This document shows, in pieces, positions 7,199 to 20,884 of a stretch of 64,000 nucleotides of DNA. Position numbers and translations under genes: made by a program. Source of the stretch: Clostridia bacterium (GTDB taxonomy: Bacteria > Bacillota > Clostridia > Oscillospirales > SIG627); the NCBI GenBank assembly GCA_017520825.1, contig JAFXEX010000002.1, positions 25,584-89,583 of the forward strand, given 5' to 3'. The notes beneath the pieces are model-generated. The model saw only the letters and a list, made by a program, of their open reading frames with translations, did not search any database and was not told the origin of the DNA. Numbering within the stretch: the first letter of the stretch is position 1; each line of letters begins with the position of its first letter.

Positions 7199-8390
7199 TA
7201 TTTTCATCATCTTTTGCTATCGGGAATTCGTGATAATATGACTCTACCTCCACGGGAAGCTGCTTTGCCTCAAGGCGTTTATCCACAAGGCGTTCTACAA
7301 GAACGTAAACTACCGAGAAGATAGGAACACCGATAATCATTCCTGCAAATCCGAAGAGTCCACTCATAACTACAATGGCTACAAGTACCCAGAAGGCTGA
7401 AAGTCCCATAGAGCTGCCAAGAATTTTCGGACCTATAAAGTTTCCGTCAAGCTGTTGTATAAGAAGTATCGCTATAAGGAATGGTATTACTTCCCTTGGG
7501 TTTACCATGAGAAGAATAAATGCGCTTGGTATTGCACCGATGAAAGGTCCAAAGAAAGGAATAACGTTGGTAACGCCAACGATTACGCTGATGAGCATTG
7601 CATAATCAAGACGAAGAATAATCATTACTATATAGCAAAGAACACCGATAATAGCAGAGTCGATGAGCTTGCCTCTTATAAATCCTCCCACAGAATCGTC
7701 AAGCATCTGCGAAAAATCTTCTATTCTCTGCACCCATTTTGAGTTAAAAACAGAGCAGATTAGCTTTTTCATTTGAGCAATCAAATGTTCCTTGCGTGAT
7801 ATCATATAAATTGATACGAAGATTGAAACCAAAAGATTTACCACGATTACGGAAACGCTCTTGATAAGTGAAATTGCCTTGGGGAAAAGCTCGGTAACGT
7901 AGGCTACTGCTTTATCCAGGAACTCGTCAAAGAAGGTTATTAATCTTTGAACTATGGGATAGTATCTACTGGACTTATCAAACAGTGAATCAGCCCAGCC
8001 TTCAAGCTTTTCCTGATATGAGCTGATGTTGTTAACGAAGGTTTCAAAGCTGGAATAAAGTTGAGGAATGATAATAGCCAGTATTGCAGTAAGAACTGCC
8101 AATACTACGACGTATGCACACAACACCGACAGAAGACGCTTTATACGCTGCATATCCTTCTTTGCCTTTTTGAAAAGAAAAACCTTTTTTTCAAAGAGAT
8201 TCACAACGGGGTTTATGAGATACGCTATTACAAATCCTACGAAAATAGGTGAAAGTATTGAAAGCAGATTTGATACGAAGGCAGAAATTATTTTAAAATT
8301 AAATATAAAATAAATAATTAAAGCACAAACCGTAACGGTTGTAACTGCATACAAAGAGGTTAAAAAATATTTATTCTGAAATCTTTTCAA
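7188..8390 (-). CDS. AI-2E family transporter (PerM/UPF0118-type permease)
   Basis: 400 aa, ~8 TM helices, conserved C-terminal block VIPFFGPFIGAIP...LDGNFIGPKILG. Confidence 0.8.
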   Translation of the reverse strand: MKRFQNKYFLTSLYAVTTVTVCALIIYFIFNFKIISAFVSNLLSILSPIFVGFVIAYLINPVVNLFEKKVFLFKKAKKDMQRIKRLLSVLCAYVVVLAVLTAILAIIIPQLYSSFETFVNNISSYQEKLEGWADSLFDKSSRYYPIVQRLITFFDEFLDKAVAYVTELFPKAISLIKSVSVIVVNLLVSIFVSIYMISRKEHLIAQMKKLICSVFNSKWVQRIEDFSQMLDDSVGGFIRGKLIDSAIIGVLCYIVMIILRLDYAMLISVIVGVTNVIPFFGPFIGAIPSAFILLMVNPREVIPFLIAILLIQQLDGNFIGPKILGSSMGLSAFWVLVAIVVMSGLFGFAGMIIGVPIFSVVYVLVERLVDKRLEAKQLPVEVESYYHEFPIAKDDENKNQ

Positions 8391-8456: not shown

Positions 8457-8485
8457 AAAAGTGTCGGCAAAATGCCGACACTTTT
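8457..8485 (-). terminator. Intrinsic terminator ending the 7-gene ABC-type operon
   Basis: AAAAGTGTCGGCA-aaa-TGCCGACACTTTT, followed on the minus strand by TTTTTTAAT; 10 nt after the stop at 8495. Confidence 0.7.
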
Positions 8486-10542: not shown

Positions 10543-13377
10543 TTATTCTTTAACAAACTCAGCGATTGTAACAACGCTTTCGTTTGCAGTAACTGTATCG
10601 TTTTCAAAATCTACCGTGTACTCGGTTTCTCCGTCGTTTACCGTTACGGTGTTCAGGTTATAGTCAAGAACAATGGTGATACCGTTGTCATAAACCATTT
10701 CTACAACTCTGAATGACGTAAAATCGTGTGAAACGACAAGAGCATTCTGTACAGGCTTCATAATCTTATCAACTATCTTATAAGTCTCTACCATATCGTT
10801 ATACCAGATGTCGTATCTGATAGAGTAATACTCTTCGCCACCGTAATTCGTTTTAAGTGTTGAGGTATTCTCATAAGAAAGCAGGAAGAAGAGATTTGCG
10901 CCGTTTTCAATAGTCTTGAGTATAGAGTTATTGAAGTCACCTGCAAGGTTGATTGCAGAGCCTGCAAAGCTCTTATAGCCGTGGAATACAAGACCTACGA
11001 GAGGTATAGCTTCACTTGCTACGTAACGGTTGCTACTGTCAAGGGGAACGTTGAGAACGTCTGTTGCATACTGCATAGTGTATGCGTTACCCTGGTCAAC
11101 CATAATATCGTAGCCGTCTTCCTTAATGGCTGAAAGGAATTCCTGTACTCTTTCCTTAGAGTCTTCACGGTTAAGTGAATTTTCCTTATTATGGTCAGAG
11201 TTGAGGTCTGAACCTATAGTGGAAAGAGAAATAGTTCCTGTGCCTAAATCGGCATACTTTTCCTTGAAGAGATTGTAGAAGTCAAGAATCTTGTTAGGCG
11301 AAATGAGAAGTGATTCGTCATTCATAAACGCCTGATATACGGGTGAATAAGATCTGTGAGATGCTGAACGGTTGTCAACAGTCTTTACAGTGTCCTTTTT
11401 GATGTTGAACTTATCGCCTGAGCCAAACTCTGAAATGTAAACGAAATCGTAATCGGGATAAATCTTTACGCCGTTTTCGTTAGCATATTCTACAAGCTCT
11501 TTAAGACCGTCGTTGCCACCCAAAACCTTTTCTACCTTAGCCTTTGTGGGAGCCTTGGCTTCAAGACCACCGTTTGCCCAGCCTGTGTATCTGATAGAAA
11601 GGTTTGTAACTCCGTCCTTTTTGAGATCGTCAATCATTATCTTTGCGTCCTCAAAGGATGTGAGAGGCTTCTTTACGGCTACGGGAACACCAAGAACTCT
11701 TTCGTTGGTTTCAACTGCCCCGAAGGTCTCTAAGTAAAGCTCTGTGTCACCTTCATATTTCTGTCTTTCAAGCTTACCGTTCTTTTCAAGGTAATTACGG
11801 TAAATGGTCGCCATATTTACGTAATTGGCGTCATCACCGTTCAACATAATGTACTTGATTCGGTAGTTGCCCGTGTATTTCTTATCCGTTTCAACAGTCC
11901 AGGTTGCAGTAAGTCCCGAAACCGAGATACCGTCAAGAGGATAAGTGTCCTTGGGTCTGGGGTAAACGTTGATAGAGGTTGCAAAATACTTGCTCAATAT
12001 ACCACCCGATGCAGTGGTGATTTCTGCAAGGGAGTCACCCTCGGTTATAATAGCAAGGTAGCCCTGTGAATCATACTCGGTTACCGTTACCATATCAACC
12101 GAACCGTCTTCCTTAACTATAACCTCGTCCTTTTCAGTGGCTTTTCTTTCTACCATTCCGAAAATGGGAAGCGTCCAATTTTCCATATTGGCTACGCTCT
12201 TTTGTGAGTAGAAGGAATAGTCCTCACCGTAAAGACGGTTTGTAATAGTAGTAGCAACGTTTGCTGAAGTATCTTCAAATCTTACAAGCGTTCCTGATCC
12301 GTCGGGAAGAACTACGTAGCCCTGCTCGGACTGATTGTAGGCTCCAAAGTAAGGAAGAATCTTGATGTTTGTAAGAGAATACTGCTTAGCGTCGTAACGA
12401 ATACCTCTTGCAGGAAGTCTTACCTCAAGTCCGTCTTCTGTAAGATAGTATTCAAGAGCCATACGGAATACAGCAGGGTTCTTTGTAGAGCCTGTGTATC
12501 CTGTAAGGTCGTGGTCGTAAAGAACGTCGTCGTAGGTGTAGTTCGTATACGTTGTGATGAATTTCTCAAACATATTAAGCTCACGCTGAACGTTCGCTAC
12601 GGTGGGGTCAATTACGTAGACAGCCATCTGTCTTGTAATGGGAAGTGTGTTATAAAGAGTCTGAATTTCATTTTGTGAAAGTCCGGGCTGGTTGGGGTCC
12701 TTGAGCAGATAGTACGACTTAAAACGATTGTACATATCCGTTTCGCCCGACTCAGCAAGAGGAGCAAGCACGTATTCCTCAAATCTTGATTTTTCAATCA
12801 TCATAGGAATAGTACGCTTTGTCGTTCCCTGACCTATGGTGTACTCAACTCTTATACCACCTCTGATTTTTGTCATGGTGATCTGATTGAGAAGTGCTGC
12901 CATAGAATATGAGGTCATGGACTTATCTTCGCCGTTATCGTTATAGTTTACGATAAGCTGGCTGAGAAGCTTTTCTCTCTCTGTGGACTTATTGCTTGTT
13001 GAAGCAACGTCGTAAGGGTTGGTAGAAAGATACTGACCTGTAGTTGTATTTACTACCTGAACCTCACCGGTTTCCTTCTGGTAGTAAAGATCGTAACCGA
13101 AATCGGAGTAAACAAGCTCCATGGTTGCCAGCTTTTCTTCATTGGAGGAATACTTCTTTGTGGTATAATCCTCGCTGAGAACCGTTACGGTAGAGGTCTT
13201 ATTCTCTTCTTGCTTTTCTTCCTCTTCGGCTTCTTCCGTTTCGTCGTTTGCAGTAGCTTCAACGGGCTTAGGTCCGTCTTCACCGTCAGCAAGAACAGGA
13301 AGTGCAACCAGCGATGAAAGTGTGCCAAGCATCATAATAAATGCAAGCAACATCGCAATGAATTTTATGTTTTTCAT
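10543..13377 (-). CDS. Large secreted protein of unknown function (944 aa; resembles what I recall as DUF5696)
   Basis: N-terminal signal peptide (MKNIKFIAMLLAFIMMLGTLSSLVALPVLADG) and an acidic linker. No catalytic motif that I can name. The family assignment is from memory and unverified. Confidence 0.6.
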   Translation of the reverse strand: MKNIKFIAMLLAFIMMLGTLSSLVALPVLADGEDGPKPVEATANDETEEAEEEEKQEENKTSTVTVLSEDYTTKKYSSNEEKLATMELVYSDFGYDLYYQKETGEVQVVNTTTGQYLSTNPYDVASTSNKSTEREKLLSQLIVNYNDNGEDKSMTSYSMAALLNQITMTKIRGGIRVEYTIGQGTTKRTIPMMIEKSRFEEYVLAPLAESGETDMYNRFKSYYLLKDPNQPGLSQNEIQTLYNTLPITRQMAVYVIDPTVANVQRELNMFEKFITTYTNYTYDDVLYDHDLTGYTGSTKNPAVFRMALEYYLTEDGLEVRLPARGIRYDAKQYSLTNIKILPYFGAYNQSEQGYVVLPDGSGTLVRFEDTSANVATTITNRLYGEDYSFYSQKSVANMENWTLPIFGMVERKATEKDEVIVKEDGSVDMVTVTEYDSQGYLAIITEGDSLAEITTASGGILSKYFATSINVYPRPKDTYPLDGISVSGLTATWTVETDKKYTGNYRIKYIMLNGDDANYVNMATIYRNYLEKNGKLERQKYEGDTELYLETFGAVETNERVLGVPVAVKKPLTSFEDAKIMIDDLKKDGVTNLSIRYTGWANGGLEAKAPTKAKVEKVLGGNDGLKELVEYANENGVKIYPDYDFVYISEFGSGDKFNIKKDTVKTVDNRSASHRSYSPVYQAFMNDESLLISPNKILDFYNLFKEKYADLGTGTISLSTIGSDLNSDHNKENSLNREDSKERVQEFLSAIKEDGYDIMVDQGNAYTMQYATDVLNVPLDSSNRYVASEAIPLVGLVFHGYKSFAGSAINLAGDFNNSILKTIENGANLFFLLSYENTSTLKTNYGGEEYYSIRYDIWYNDMVETYKIVDKIMKPVQNALVVSHDFTSFRVVEMVYDNGITIVLDYNLNTVTVNDGETEYTVDFENDTVTANESVVTIAEFVKE

Positions 13378-13397: not shown

Positions 13398-15533
13398 TTA
13401 CATTCGATACGAAAGCTCGACGTAAATGTTATATACGAATGATACTATCTTCGCAACAAGTCCCGAGAAGAGAACTCCAAGGAAGATGATAATCGCCATA
13501 CCGACGATGGTACCGATACAGGTAATTACGTTCTTGCCGAGAGCATAATCGTGAATTACGCTCATTGCAAAGAATATAAGGAAGCCTGCCCATACAAAGC
13601 CGATAGCGTTAATAAGTGTTACGATAGAGCCTTCTTCGAAAAGAAGTACGTTTGTGATAGCCGTTGAAGGAATCATCATAATGGGTATAGGAAGCATTGC
13701 ATAGCCTGTTGCCATAAAGATGTCCTTCATACTTCCCTCACCCTCAAAGAGAGTGGTGAGACACCAGTTAGAAATACACCAGAGAACGTAAGGCAGAATA
13801 ACGCCTATCGCTTCGGCTATATAACTGATACCTTCCGAGTAGGGATTGAAGATGTATGCCGTACCCGATGATTTGTAGATAAATCCAATAATAGTTAAAG
13901 CAACTATTGTAAGGGATGCTGCCATACTTCCTCGCTTTTCGTGCTTCATATCCCAGAAGCCGTCAAAGGGATGGAAAATAATATGGAAGGCGTAGAGGAA
14001 GGTTTCCTTGAAGCTTCTCTTGGACTTCATCTTCTGTCCTGCTACGTTTACCTTATTGGCATACTTGAGGAATTTTCCAACGAGCACGAAGAAAACGATT
14101 ATTACGATGGGAACCAGAAGAATCCATTTCTCCATCCAATCTTTTCTTATCTGCTTAAATGCATTTGAGTAATCTTCAACTGCATAAGCGTATTTGTACA
14201 TATCCATTGCTTCTTCATACTTACCCTGACGGTAGTAGCTATCGCCTATACCGATGTAAGCCATGTCGAAGTTGGAGTTTCTTTGAAGTATCTTTTCCCA
14301 ATATACAACTGCCTGGTCATAGTTTCTGTCTTCTGTGTTCTGAAGAGCTTCTACAAGCAGGTCGCCGTATTCTGTGCGCTTATATATTGTGATAGTATCG
14401 TTTGATTTATCAAGGATGAGCAACTCGTCACCCTTATAGCAAATAGACTGAATATTCGCTATATTACCAAGCTGTGAGCCCTTATCTCCAAAGATGTAGA
14501 GCAGGTCACCGTCCTGGTTGTAGGTGAATACCTTACTTCTCTTTTCGTCGATAATCGACCACATTCCGGCAGAGCCGAGCGCTACGTCGATAACCTTTGA
14601 GGGACCCGTAATTGTAACGTTGTCCATCTCTACGAGCATTACCTGTACTTCACCTGAAGGAGGATAGAAGCCATTACGGTTCATAATATCCTGTCCGTTG
14701 GGGTTGAGCTTCTTAACAGGAGCGTAGTCGGCTGATTTACTCTTAGTGTCAATAGCCTCTTGCTGTGAATTAGCGTCAATGGTAGAGGTTGTAACGTAGA
14801 TGAATCCCGTTTCATCAATGGTCATATTGTTATACTCAGTAGGAACGTACTGCGTGCTCTGAGCTCTCTGTGCCTTTGTCTGGAATCGTCTCCAGAAGAT
14901 ATCGAAGGCAGAGGGAGTTGTCTTCTGAGCGCCGAGGAAGCCAAGGAAGGTACCGTCGGCATTCATTGAGATAACACCGTAGGTTGTGGTAGAAGATACA
15001 ACGTAAATTCTTCCTGCCGTATCAACCGAAACAGCAACGGGTGTGTAAATGTGTCCTTCGGGGAATACGTCGCTTTCAGGCTCGGGAATTATTCTCTTGA
15101 AGGAGCCGTCAGCTCTTGAGAAAACTACTATTCTGTGGTTCTGGGAGTCTGCAACGTATATTTCAATCTCGTTAACGAAAACACCCTCAGGAGCGTTAAG
15201 CATATCATATACGCCGTTTTCGTTATAGAAAGCAGAAATACCGTATTGAGTTTCCCACTTATCGTTGATTACAACGATTCTGTTGTTTTTTGTGTCTGCT
15301 ATGTAAACCCATTCGTGAGAATCTACAAAGATATCGTTGGCACTGCTTAACGGTGTTTCCAACGTCAGGTCAGTGGAATCAATGAGCCTGTCGGGAACGT
15401 AAGCGTCGGGAGAAAGTGCCATAAAGCCGTCGATGTCATAGGTGTAGGTTGCATAGGGCACGGCAGCGAATACGCTGGGTGCAAGAATAACTGCAACGAG
15501 AAGGGCTAAGAGAACTATTTTGATTTTTTTCAT
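13398..15533 (-). CDS. Signal peptide + NHL-repeat beta-propeller + TPR + C-terminal Yip1-family multi-pass membrane domain (711 aa)
   Basis: Repeated NNRIVVIN / NHRIVVFS / GRIYVV NHL-like blades; TPR-like YDQAVVYWEKILQRNSNFDMAYIGIGDSYYRQGKYEEAMDMY; then about 6 TM helices with a Yip1-like organisation. Confidence 0.65.
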   Translation of the reverse strand: MKKIKIVLLALLVAVILAPSVFAAVPYATYTYDIDGFMALSPDAYVPDRLIDSTDLTLETPLSSANDIFVDSHEWVYIADTKNNRIVVINDKWETQYGISAFYNENGVYDMLNAPEGVFVNEIEIYVADSQNHRIVVFSRADGSFKRIIPEPESDVFPEGHIYTPVAVSVDTAGRIYVVSSTTTYGVISMNADGTFLGFLGAQKTTPSAFDIFWRRFQTKAQRAQSTQYVPTEYNNMTIDETGFIYVTTSTIDANSQQEAIDTKSKSADYAPVKKLNPNGQDIMNRNGFYPPSGEVQVMLVEMDNVTITGPSKVIDVALGSAGMWSIIDEKRSKVFTYNQDGDLLYIFGDKGSQLGNIANIQSICYKGDELLILDKSNDTITIYKRTEYGDLLVEALQNTEDRNYDQAVVYWEKILQRNSNFDMAYIGIGDSYYRQGKYEEAMDMYKYAYAVEDYSNAFKQIRKDWMEKWILLVPIVIIVFFVLVGKFLKYANKVNVAGQKMKSKRSFKETFLYAFHIIFHPFDGFWDMKHEKRGSMAASLTIVALTIIGFIYKSSGTAYIFNPYSEGISYIAEAIGVILPYVLWCISNWCLTTLFEGEGSMKDIFMATGYAMLPIPIMMIPSTAITNVLLFEEGSIVTLINAIGFVWAGFLIFFAMSVIHDYALGKNVITCIGTIVGMAIIIFLGVLFSGLVAKIVSFVYNIYVELSYRM

Positions 15534-20855: not shown

Positions 20856-20884
20856 AGTATATCATTCCAGCCGTTTTTTGTCAA
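20856..20884 (-). promoter_or_regulatory. Promoter of the 7-gene operon
   Basis: Minus strand: TTGACA (20884-20879), 17 nt, TATACT (20861-20856). Leaves a ~190-nt 5' leader. Confidence 0.5.

Follow-up and report, generated by a model that had tools for sequence, protein, structure and literature searches.

In the passage of PMC4887032 that deals with it (citing Yamada 2012), YknW, a Yip1-family protein of the Bacillus YknWXYZ system, is described as modulating the assembly of YknXYZ via a composite interface between the ABC transporter and YknX, an extracytoplasmic protein anchored in the membrane. A 64,000-nucleotide stretch of the genome of a Clostridia bacterium (assembly GCA_017520825.1, contig JAFXEX010000002.1, positions 25,584 to 89,583; hereafter the window) harbors a protein of 711 amino acids (minus strand, 13398-15533) in which a Yip1 domain is joined to an NHL β-propeller and a tetratricopeptide repeat (TPR) module. 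The original prediction for this gene had named YknW as the only functional precedent known among bacteria, and the precedent is real. The two are alike in being bacterial Yip1-domain (PF04893) membrane proteins coded inside an ABC-transporter operon, and the logic of the YknX-transporter interface is, by description, the one proposed below for the neighboring protein DUF5696 and the permeases P3 and P4. YknW, however, consists of a Yip1 domain alone and serves a MacB-type exporter of a peptide toxin, whereas the Yip1 domain studied here is fused or, in relatives, adjacent to an exported NHL propeller, a TPR module and an extra transmembrane (TM) helix, and its host system is not an exporter such as YknYZ but a type-I binding-protein-dependent importer of the CUT1 class (BPD_transp_1 permeases and a sugar solute-binding protein, SBP). 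The YknW-type partners, namely, a MacB/FtsX exporter and an HlyD-family membrane fusion protein (MFP), do not occur in the window cassette, and HlyD/MacB-like genes were seen only in one distant locus (L133). By analogy, the protein is like YknW in concept and is not a YknW-type system. It is very probably an integral accessory component of its cassette, and we lean, with modest assurance, to the view that it serves a conserved glycan-import cassette of Gram-positives as a non-catalytic accessory (scaffold) subunit embedded in the membrane.

Three further groups of described proteins resemble parts of this system. Eukaryotic Yip1/YIPF proteins, the Rab-interacting proteins of the Golgi and endoplasmic reticulum, share the Pfam domain with its five TM helices, keep the N-terminus in the cytosol and the C-terminus in the lumen or outside, and work by binding to other membrane proteins; bacteria, in contrast, possess neither Rab GTPases nor vesicle traffic, and the cytosolic N-terminal domain of the eukaryotic proteins is replaced here by an extracytoplasmic propeller/TPR part and the extra TM helix. 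The extracellular NHL sensor domain of the Mycobacterium tuberculosis Ser/Thr kinase PknD (PDB 1rwi), from which the Pizza designs derive, is likewise a six-bladed propeller displayed outside a monoderm/mycobacterial membrane on a single TM helix. In PknD the propeller is coupled to a cytoplasmic kinase, whereas the protein described here continues through a short linker into the Yip1 bundle and carries a TPR module between propeller and TM helix. In Bacillota, the CUT1 oligosaccharide importers with a shared MsmX/MsmK-type ATPase, and the Gram-positive polysaccharide utilization loci (PULs) built on them, are similar in their UgpAE/MalFG-like permeases, their oligosaccharide SBP and an ATPase coded elsewhere, and carbohydrate-active enzymes (CAZymes) and LacI regulators flank related cassettes. 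A canonical CUT1 importer consists of one SBP and one permease pair and has no membrane accessory proteins, whereas the present cassette comprises two permease pairs, an SBP of roughly 1,080 amino acids, the propeller-TPR-Yip1 protein and a DUF5696 protein resembling family 129 glycoside hydrolases (GH129).

All the parts listed in the original prediction, from the signal peptide and NHL propeller through the TPR-like helices, the single TM helix and the basic loop to the Yip1 bundle of five helices, were borne out by Pfam, PDB profiles, AlphaFold2/Foldseek and hydropathy. The Pfam Yip1 model (PF04893) matched residues 517-685 (E 1.3e-13; 51.7 bits against a cut-off of 28.6) over profile positions 2-170 of 173, which places the protein in this family. 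NHL (PF01436) was matched with E 3e-9 (36.9 bits against a cut-off of 20) and TPR_1 (PF00515), marginally, at residues 425-449 with E 1e-6 (28.6 bits against 27.8). A family profile made from 33 homologues and run against the PDB sequences matched NHL propellers (Pizza designs, E 1e-34; TRIM71, 4e-20; the Mycobacterium tuberculosis PknD sensor, 5e-17) as well as consensus TPR proteins (E 1.7e-20), and gave no direct match to a solved structure for the Yip1 part. In the AlphaFold2 model (mean predicted local distance difference test, pLDDT, of 82), residues 27-386 form a six-bladed propeller and residues 388-469 five TPR-like helices; a TM helix (473-501) and a short helical stretch in the cytoplasm then lead to five long helices (537-710). 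The propeller contains inserted helices at about 209-262 and a loop modelled with low confidence at 280-312, and the final TPR-like helix of the model continues directly into the first TM helix (TM1). A Foldseek search with this model retrieved the NHL domains of TRIM71, Thin, Brat and TRIM2 (E about 1e-13, target TM-score about 0.75). With a profile match above cut-off and a superposable fold, the ectodomain is assigned as a six-bladed NHL-repeat propeller on the strength of the model, and the match above cut-off together with the helix pairs identifies the TPR module. Hydropathy analysis agrees with this order, showing a signal peptide, a hydrophilic stretch of ~445 residues, a strong TM1 at 471-489, a K/R-rich loop at 490-535 and, after it, another five hydrophobic helices. 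TM1 is predicted to bring the chain back to the cytoplasm, and the Yip1 part is accordingly modelled with the five TM helices and cytoplasmic N-terminus typical of its family.

The Yip1 domain opens with a highly conserved cytoplasmic motif, HIIFHPFDGFWDMKHEKRG; HPFDGFWD is the most conserved peptide of the whole protein (segment conservation 0.46) and served as the query of the genome scan described below, while the linker at residues 493-512 is the least conserved region of the family (0.14). A sensor in which the propeller perceives substrate and regulates the transporter allosterically via Yip1 and the cytoplasmic HPFDGFWD segment, the "gate" of the original prediction, is favored by this conservation and by the similarity to the PknD propeller, for which a sensing role has been proposed. 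The protein has no cytoplasmic output domain, however, the motif falls inside the Pfam Yip1 model (profile positions 2-20) and is thus a family feature rather than an added signaling element, and the LacI-type regulators beside several cassettes can account for regulation. Such a sensor is scarcely probable.

Conservation was evaluated across 19 diverse homologues spanning Paenibacillus, Caldicellulosiruptor and Clostridia. In the propeller, Y45, G194, F196, G201, P231, G243, G280 and D375 were kept in at least 18 of the 19, i.e., only Gly, Phe, Pro and Tyr residues and one Asp, all of structural types; neither a conserved catalytic constellation nor a conserved cluster of acidic, His or Asn residues was found among these homologues. 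In the Yip1 part the conserved residues were P522, G598, G600, P615, E634, H661, F699, E706 and R710. These patterns bear on the proposal that the propeller is an enzyme, i.e., a lactonase, lyase or esterase of the SMP-30/gluconolactonase/LRE (SGL) or streptogramin-lyase type acting on the substrate before import. Homologues are named "gluconolactonase" or "sugar lactone lactonase YvrE" in databases, a few carry a precomputed SGL (PF08450) match, and Virginiamycin B lyase was among the weaker fold matches (E 1e-8). The Pfam scan gave no SGL match to the protein at E<=0.01, on which it cannot be counted among the SGL enzymes, and its best matches in both sequence and fold are non-enzymatic NHL domains. 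Since neither a catalytic signature nor an SGL match is present, the sequence favors a binding or scaffolding propeller over an enzyme; the latter is very improbable, and the database name "gluconolactonase" is probably misleading.

The gene belongs to a run of seven minus-strand genes with gaps of 1-42 nt, in the order SBP, permeases P1 and P2, the propeller-TPR-Yip1 gene, DUF5696, and permeases P3 and P4. The original prediction, which gave no strand, had placed it exactly between two permease pairs; it does lie between them, though not alone, as DUF5696 shares this position. More than 3,900 homologues came from a word-indexed search, and the best 120 of them were full-length with 54-97% identity, some of them carrying the name "YIP1 family protein" in metagenome-assembled genomes of Clostridia. 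An exhaustive search of 1.84 billion representatives clustered at 50% identity gave 12,640 matches at E<=1e-3 and 1,431 at E<=1e-30, and the top 150 were mostly full-length fused proteins of 690-790 amino acids, down to 32% identity. Scanning species-representative genomes revealed at least 593 stretches coding for a relative; the family is carried by several hundred species genomes at least. The best 80 of these loci all belonged to uncultured gut or rumen Clostridia and Oscillospiraceae. The complete cassette was present in identical order in 61 of the 80, and the remaining 19 ended at a contig or locus boundary, so that no exception to the context was seen.

For a wider sample, 20 kb around DUF5696 were inspected in 20 genomes of about 17 genera, DUF5696 having been found above cut-off in 35 of 401 genomes sampled across the phylum. 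The propeller-TPR-Yip1 gene, or its two split counterparts, stood directly 5' of DUF5696 in 20/20, and hence a relative lay directly upstream of DUF5696 in all 100 loci (80 close and 20 distant). P3-P4 followed DUF5696 directly in 19 of the 20 diverse loci, the exception being L133. The constant core is therefore of four genes, [propeller-TPR-Yip1]-[DUF5696]-[P3]-[P4]. The SBP-P1-P2 module mostly lies upstream of this core; it is found downstream in L125, L128 and L130 and was not detected upstream in L118, L122 and L133, and in L123 a P1-P2 pair occurs ~5.6 kb beyond P4. With this constancy in 100 loci and the 1,431 representatives at E<=1e-30, a chance neighbor and a one-off fusion were both rejected as explanations. 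The two points on which the original prediction had made itself depend have thus come out in its favor: profiles support the NHL and Yip1 assignments, and the fusion is tied to a transporter cassette without exception in the close and distant loci, the incomplete ones being cut by contig ends.

In the most divergent cassette, L133 (6635-15791, in a 6.1-Mb genome), three genes are inserted between DUF5696 and P3-P4: an open reading frame (ORF) of 295 amino acids that no Pfam model matches, an MFP of the HlyD family and a MacB_PCD/FtsX-type permease, i.e., a YknWXYZ-like combination of Yip1, MFP and MacB beside sugar-importer permeases. This gene set hints at an evolutionary link between YknWXYZ-like and importer arrangements. 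At the other extreme, the minimal cassette L118 (5850-15537) consists of a fused propeller-Yip1 gene, DUF5696, P3 and P4, followed by an ordinary SBP of 449 amino acids and a pectate lyase, with a GH106 (alpha-L-rhamnosidase-like) gene upstream; it is without the giant SBP and without P1/P2, and its genome has three paralogous DUF5696 cassettes.

The propeller-TPR-TM and Yip1 parts were fused in 12 of the 20 diverse loci (645-838 amino acids) and coded by two adjacent genes in the other 8. In the split form, the upstream ORF of 500-540 amino acids (488-497 from the start codon in Paenibacillus) begins with the signal peptide, continues through the propeller and the TPR module and ends in a TM helix, so that TM1 serves as the anchor of the propeller-TPR protein, and the separate Yip1 protein has about 205-230 residues. 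The break always falls in the unconserved basic linker between TM1 and HPFDGFWD, and the Yip1 ORFs start 15-30 residues ahead of this motif. They have no signal peptide, which fits the N-in topology and explains the need of the fused form for TM1. Exact-sequence look-up identified the split form in Paenibacillus taichungensis and P. odorifer, where the database names run, in order, "NHL repeat-containing protein" or "gluconolactonase", "YIP1 family protein" and "DUF5696 domain-containing protein", and the fused form in Caldicellulosiruptor owensensis (ADQ03723.1 / WP_238525028.1). Since several family codes include fused as well as split proteins, fusion or fission has probably taken place on more than one occasion. 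Read from gene arrangement, this pattern is classic Rosetta-stone evidence, suggesting that the two halves work together.

A Pfam scan of 87 ORFs flanking the 20 diverse cassettes revealed 17 further ordinary SBPs, LacI-type regulators, and CAZymes of several kinds, namely, GH3 (3-4 ORFs), GH26 (3), GH10 (2), pectate lyase (1) and carbohydrate-binding module (CBM) family 35 (2 ORFs). The variety of degradative enzymes beside the cassettes points to a general glycan-uptake module that stands next to differing enzymes. The same surroundings bear on the possibility that the protein is a surface glycan-binding protein, whose propeller (with or without the TPR part) would bind a poly- or oligosaccharide and hand it on to the giant SBP, DUF5696 or the permeases, with Yip1 as a mere anchor. 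Carbohydrate-utilization contexts agree with it, NHL and other six-bladed propellers are commonly ligand-binding platforms, and the near structural matches in Foldseek include ligand-capturing propeller surface lipoproteins, e.g., BtuG. On the other hand, the propeller stays recognizably orthologous beside CAZymes for mannan, xylan and pectin, Pfam gave no CBM-like matches or aromatic-platform signatures, and a plain anchor would need neither a conserved five-helix Yip1 domain with an invariant motif nor a separate gene in the split forms. This explanation is rather unlikely, and part of it returns with the co-evolution data below.

Co-evolution within the cassette was evaluated by the mirror-tree approach on 62 complete cassettes, using pairwise distance matrices for each protein, with the propeller-TPR-Yip1 protein cut into its three parts. 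The matrices fell into two blocks, {SBP, P1, P2} with r = 0.79-0.87 and {propeller, TPR, Yip1, DUF5696, P3, P4} with r = 0.56-0.85, and correlations across the blocks were 0.44-0.67. Among the partial correlations, SBP core-P2 (0.53), P3-P4 (0.44) and P1-P2 (0.41) served as positive controls because physical contact is expected, and SBP N-extension-SBP core (0.49) because these are parts of one chain. Propeller-DUF5696 (0.42) and Yip1-DUF5696 (0.37) reached the level of these controls, followed by DUF5696-P4 (0.30), while Yip1 gave 0.20 with P1, 0.15 with P3, -0.08 with P4 and -0.16 with P2. When the alignments were equalised to 180 columns, the propeller correlated with DUF5696 at 0.74 +/- 0.03, as against 0.55-0.63 with the SBP or any permease. 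It is suggestive that the strongest specific link of the protein is to DUF5696 and not to the permeases, and on these covariation data DUF5696 is, on balance, its probable specific partner. Yip1 falls into the same block as P3 and P4, and its partial correlations with them are lower than that with DUF5696.

These correlations also bear on the idea of an assembly or quality-control factor, in which Yip1 would transiently insert, assemble or stabilize the four permeases or the anchored DUF5696 without being a stoichiometric subunit. It would echo the role of eukaryotic Yip1 in membrane organization and that of YknW, described in the relevant passage of PMC4887032 as modulating YknXYZ assembly, and it would suit a Yip1 part that co-varies with DUF5696 and hardly at all with P3/P4. 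It leaves unexplained, however, the large conserved propeller/TPR part, which co-varies most with the body of DUF5696; the operon position and tight spacing (15-20 nt gaps) suggest co-production, which cannot separate a factor from a subunit. We consider such a factor improbable.

Several considerations weigh against the scaffold reading. The proposed interactions rest on synteny and co-evolution; genes of the same operon have a common ancestry and respond to the same substrate-driven selection, both of which inflate mirror-tree correlations, and the differences between pairs are not large. The high propeller-DUF5696 correlation would also be expected if both bind the same glycan, i.e., it could come from common substrate specificity rather than contact, as the glycan-binding explanation would have it. 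Yip1 co-varies so little with P3 and P4 that docking on the translocon is the weakest step, and a contact of the Yip1 part with the permeases, judged from these correlations, is possible but doubtful; docking on the permeases and the "gate" function are unproven. Lastly, DUF5696 is glycosidase-like in its modelled fold and may or may not be an active enzyme.

The DUF5696 protein itself was compared with known structures. Its profile had a sole match in the PDB, the GH129 alpha-N-acetylgalactosaminidase NagBb (5wzn; E 4e-5), and the HMMER alignment covers barrel strands 1-3 only. With the AlphaFold2 model (pLDDT 84.8; predicted template modelling score, pTM, 0.79), Foldseek retrieved GH129 structures (5opq, E 2e-26; 5wzn, E 1e-22, TMt 0.73), GH101 endo-alpha-GalNAc-ases (E about 1e-15) and GH36 enzymes, and the body thus models confidently as a GH129/GH101-like multi-domain glycosidase fold. 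Conserved polar candidates among 29 diverse members are D359, D386, D728, R737, N764, N810 and E824. At the N-terminus a hydrophobic helix is followed by an acidic linker of ~40 residues with pLDDT below 50, which in the model looks like a membrane tether. Some orthologous cassettes have much longer DUF5696 ORFs (L053, 1,978; L077, 1,860; L074, 1,498; L071, 1,468 amino acids), up to twice the usual length, presumably with extra C-terminal domains appended.

Under the scaffold reading, the propeller/TPR ectodomain, lying close to the outer membrane face, would bind the tethered DUF5696 ectoprotein, and the Yip1 bundle would form an in-membrane interface holding DUF5696 at the P3/P4 translocon, with possible contacts to the DUF5696 anchor helix and to P3/P4. 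Glycan capture or trimming at the surface would thereby be physically coupled to import, and the energy would come from a single MalK/MsmX-type ATPase coded elsewhere in the genome. A bolder extension, which we offer as speculative and think unlikely to hold, makes the propeller-TPR-TM/Yip1 protein the organizer of a stable cell-surface "utilisome" in single-membrane bacteria: the ectodomain would clamp the GH129-fold DUF5696 over P3/P4, the Yip1 bundle would bridge to the second importer and the giant CBM-bearing SBP, and one machine would capture, process and import long oligosaccharides, as a functional counterpart of the SusCD complexes of Bacteroidota. In that arrangement DUF5696 need not be an enzyme and might instead thread glycans or act as a lid without hydrolysing them.

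The features of the cassette in the window are collected in Table 1. The spacing of the seven genes, one promoter-like site and one terminator-like hairpin suggest a single co-transcribed unit. The hairpin, which begins 10 nt past the stop of P4 (8495), is probably a bidirectional terminator closing this unit and separates P4 from a co-directional AI-2E family transporter gene starting at 8390; because just one of the 80 related loci has an AI-2E gene after the cassette, it is not regarded as part of the unit. The other flank is mnmA, and Pfam revealed no adjacent CAZyme gene. In the giant SBP the SBP fold is confined to the C-terminal ~420 residues, and a PDB profile search showed resemblance to the oligosaccharide SBPs Lin1841, cyclodextrin-binding protein and NagB. 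Its N-terminal extension of ~600 residues has only weak matches to CBM35 (E 0.008) and Golvesin_C (3e-4) and evolves faster than the SBP core (mean distance 1.08 against 0.82).

No ATPase gene is present in the seven-gene unit. In the genome (1.5 Mb, 84% complete), which contains one copy each of DUF5696 and Yip1, a search for the MalK-type OB domain (OB_MalK) identified a sole ORF of 378 amino acids (contig C6:32748-32921, minus strand), outside the window, and this single MalK/MsmX-type ATPase is presumably the shared energizer of both permease pairs. A shared ATPase encoded elsewhere is the usual arrangement for CUT1 importers, and the notion that an operon without an ATPase is abnormal was rejected, one MalK-type ATPase being present. 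With a permease pair, an SBP and a MalK/MsmX-type ATPase, the host system can be classed by its sequences as CUT1 (TC 3.A.1.1).

Table 1. Positions in the window of the cassette genes, of putative signals at its two ends and of the predicted parts of the propeller-TPR-Yip1 protein
Feature	Position	Strand	Basis
Permease P4	8495-9523	-	BPD_transp_1, UgpA/UgpE/MalG-like
Permease P3	9542-10525	-	BPD_transp_1, UgpA/UgpE/MalG-like
DUF5696 protein, 944 aa, invariant downstream neighbor	10543..13377	-	Pfam DUF5696, E 1e-156
Permease P2	15549-16421	-	BPD_transp_1, UgpAE/MalFG-like
Permease P1	16423-17376	-	BPD_transp_1, UgpAE/MalFG-like
Giant SBP, roughly 1,080 aa	17419-20655 from likely Met45 start; ORF open to 20787	-	SBP_bac_8 / SBP_bac_1
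Promoter-like site TTGACA-17-TATACT with extended TG, upstream of cassette	20856..20884	-	11/12 consensus match; consensus only
Perfect 13-bp palindromic hairpin between A and T runs, 10 nt past P4 stop	8457..8485		sequence
Signal peptide, residues 1-23 (MKKIKIVLLALLVAVILAPSVFA, followed by AV)	15465..15533	-	hydropathy peak 6-24; VFA/AV cleavage-like site at 23/24; modelled helix 2-17, low-confidence 18-23
Extracytoplasmic six-bladed NHL beta-propeller, residues 24-386 (predicted)	14376..15464	-	Pfam, PDB profile, Foldseek
TPR-like helical module, residues 387-469, five helices	14127..14375	-	Pfam TPR_1, consensus TPR profile match, model
TM1, residues 470-492	14058..14126	-	hydropathy 2.98 at 471-489; split-form junctions
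Basic cytoplasmic linker, residues 493-512	13998..14057	-	10 K/R within 490-545; split junctions
Yip1 domain, residues 513-711, five TM helices (predicted N-in, C-out)	13401..13997	-	Pfam Yip1; model helices 537-710

No paper was found in literature searches on DUF5696, PF18952 or the cassette, nor for Caldicellulosiruptor with NHL repeat, and nothing relevant was obtained for Yip1 combined with permease, glycoside hydrolase, ABC or PUL. A transcriptome paper on Paenibacillus JDR-2 does not mention NHL, Yip or propeller, and two papers on Yip1 in prokaryotes (archaeal cassettes; HAAS domain) were set aside as having no bearing on this protein. The original prediction had spoken of an accessory subunit of a new kind; the absence of a publication in these searches agrees with this, but the protein is very common and already bears the names "YIP1 family protein" and "NHL repeat-containing protein". 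It represents a real, very widespread and uncharacterised protein family, a Yip1-type accessory of an ABC transporter.

Gut Bacillota are generally held to use plant fiber and host glycans by means of simple ABC importers made of one SBP, two permeases and a shared ATPase. The cassette combines two such importers with three additional conserved proteins of unknown function. Its hosts include Oscillospiraceae of rumen and gut as well as Paenibacillus and Caldicellulosiruptor, and it is found in Gram-positives of both gut and soil. Culturable, genetically manipulable carriers exist, which makes the idea directly testable. If the scaffold reading is true, it would be the first importer role for bacterial Yip1 domains, the gene could serve to mark a class of glycan-uptake loci that is still uncharacterised, and it would mean that Gram-positives build surface-coupled complexes for capture and import.

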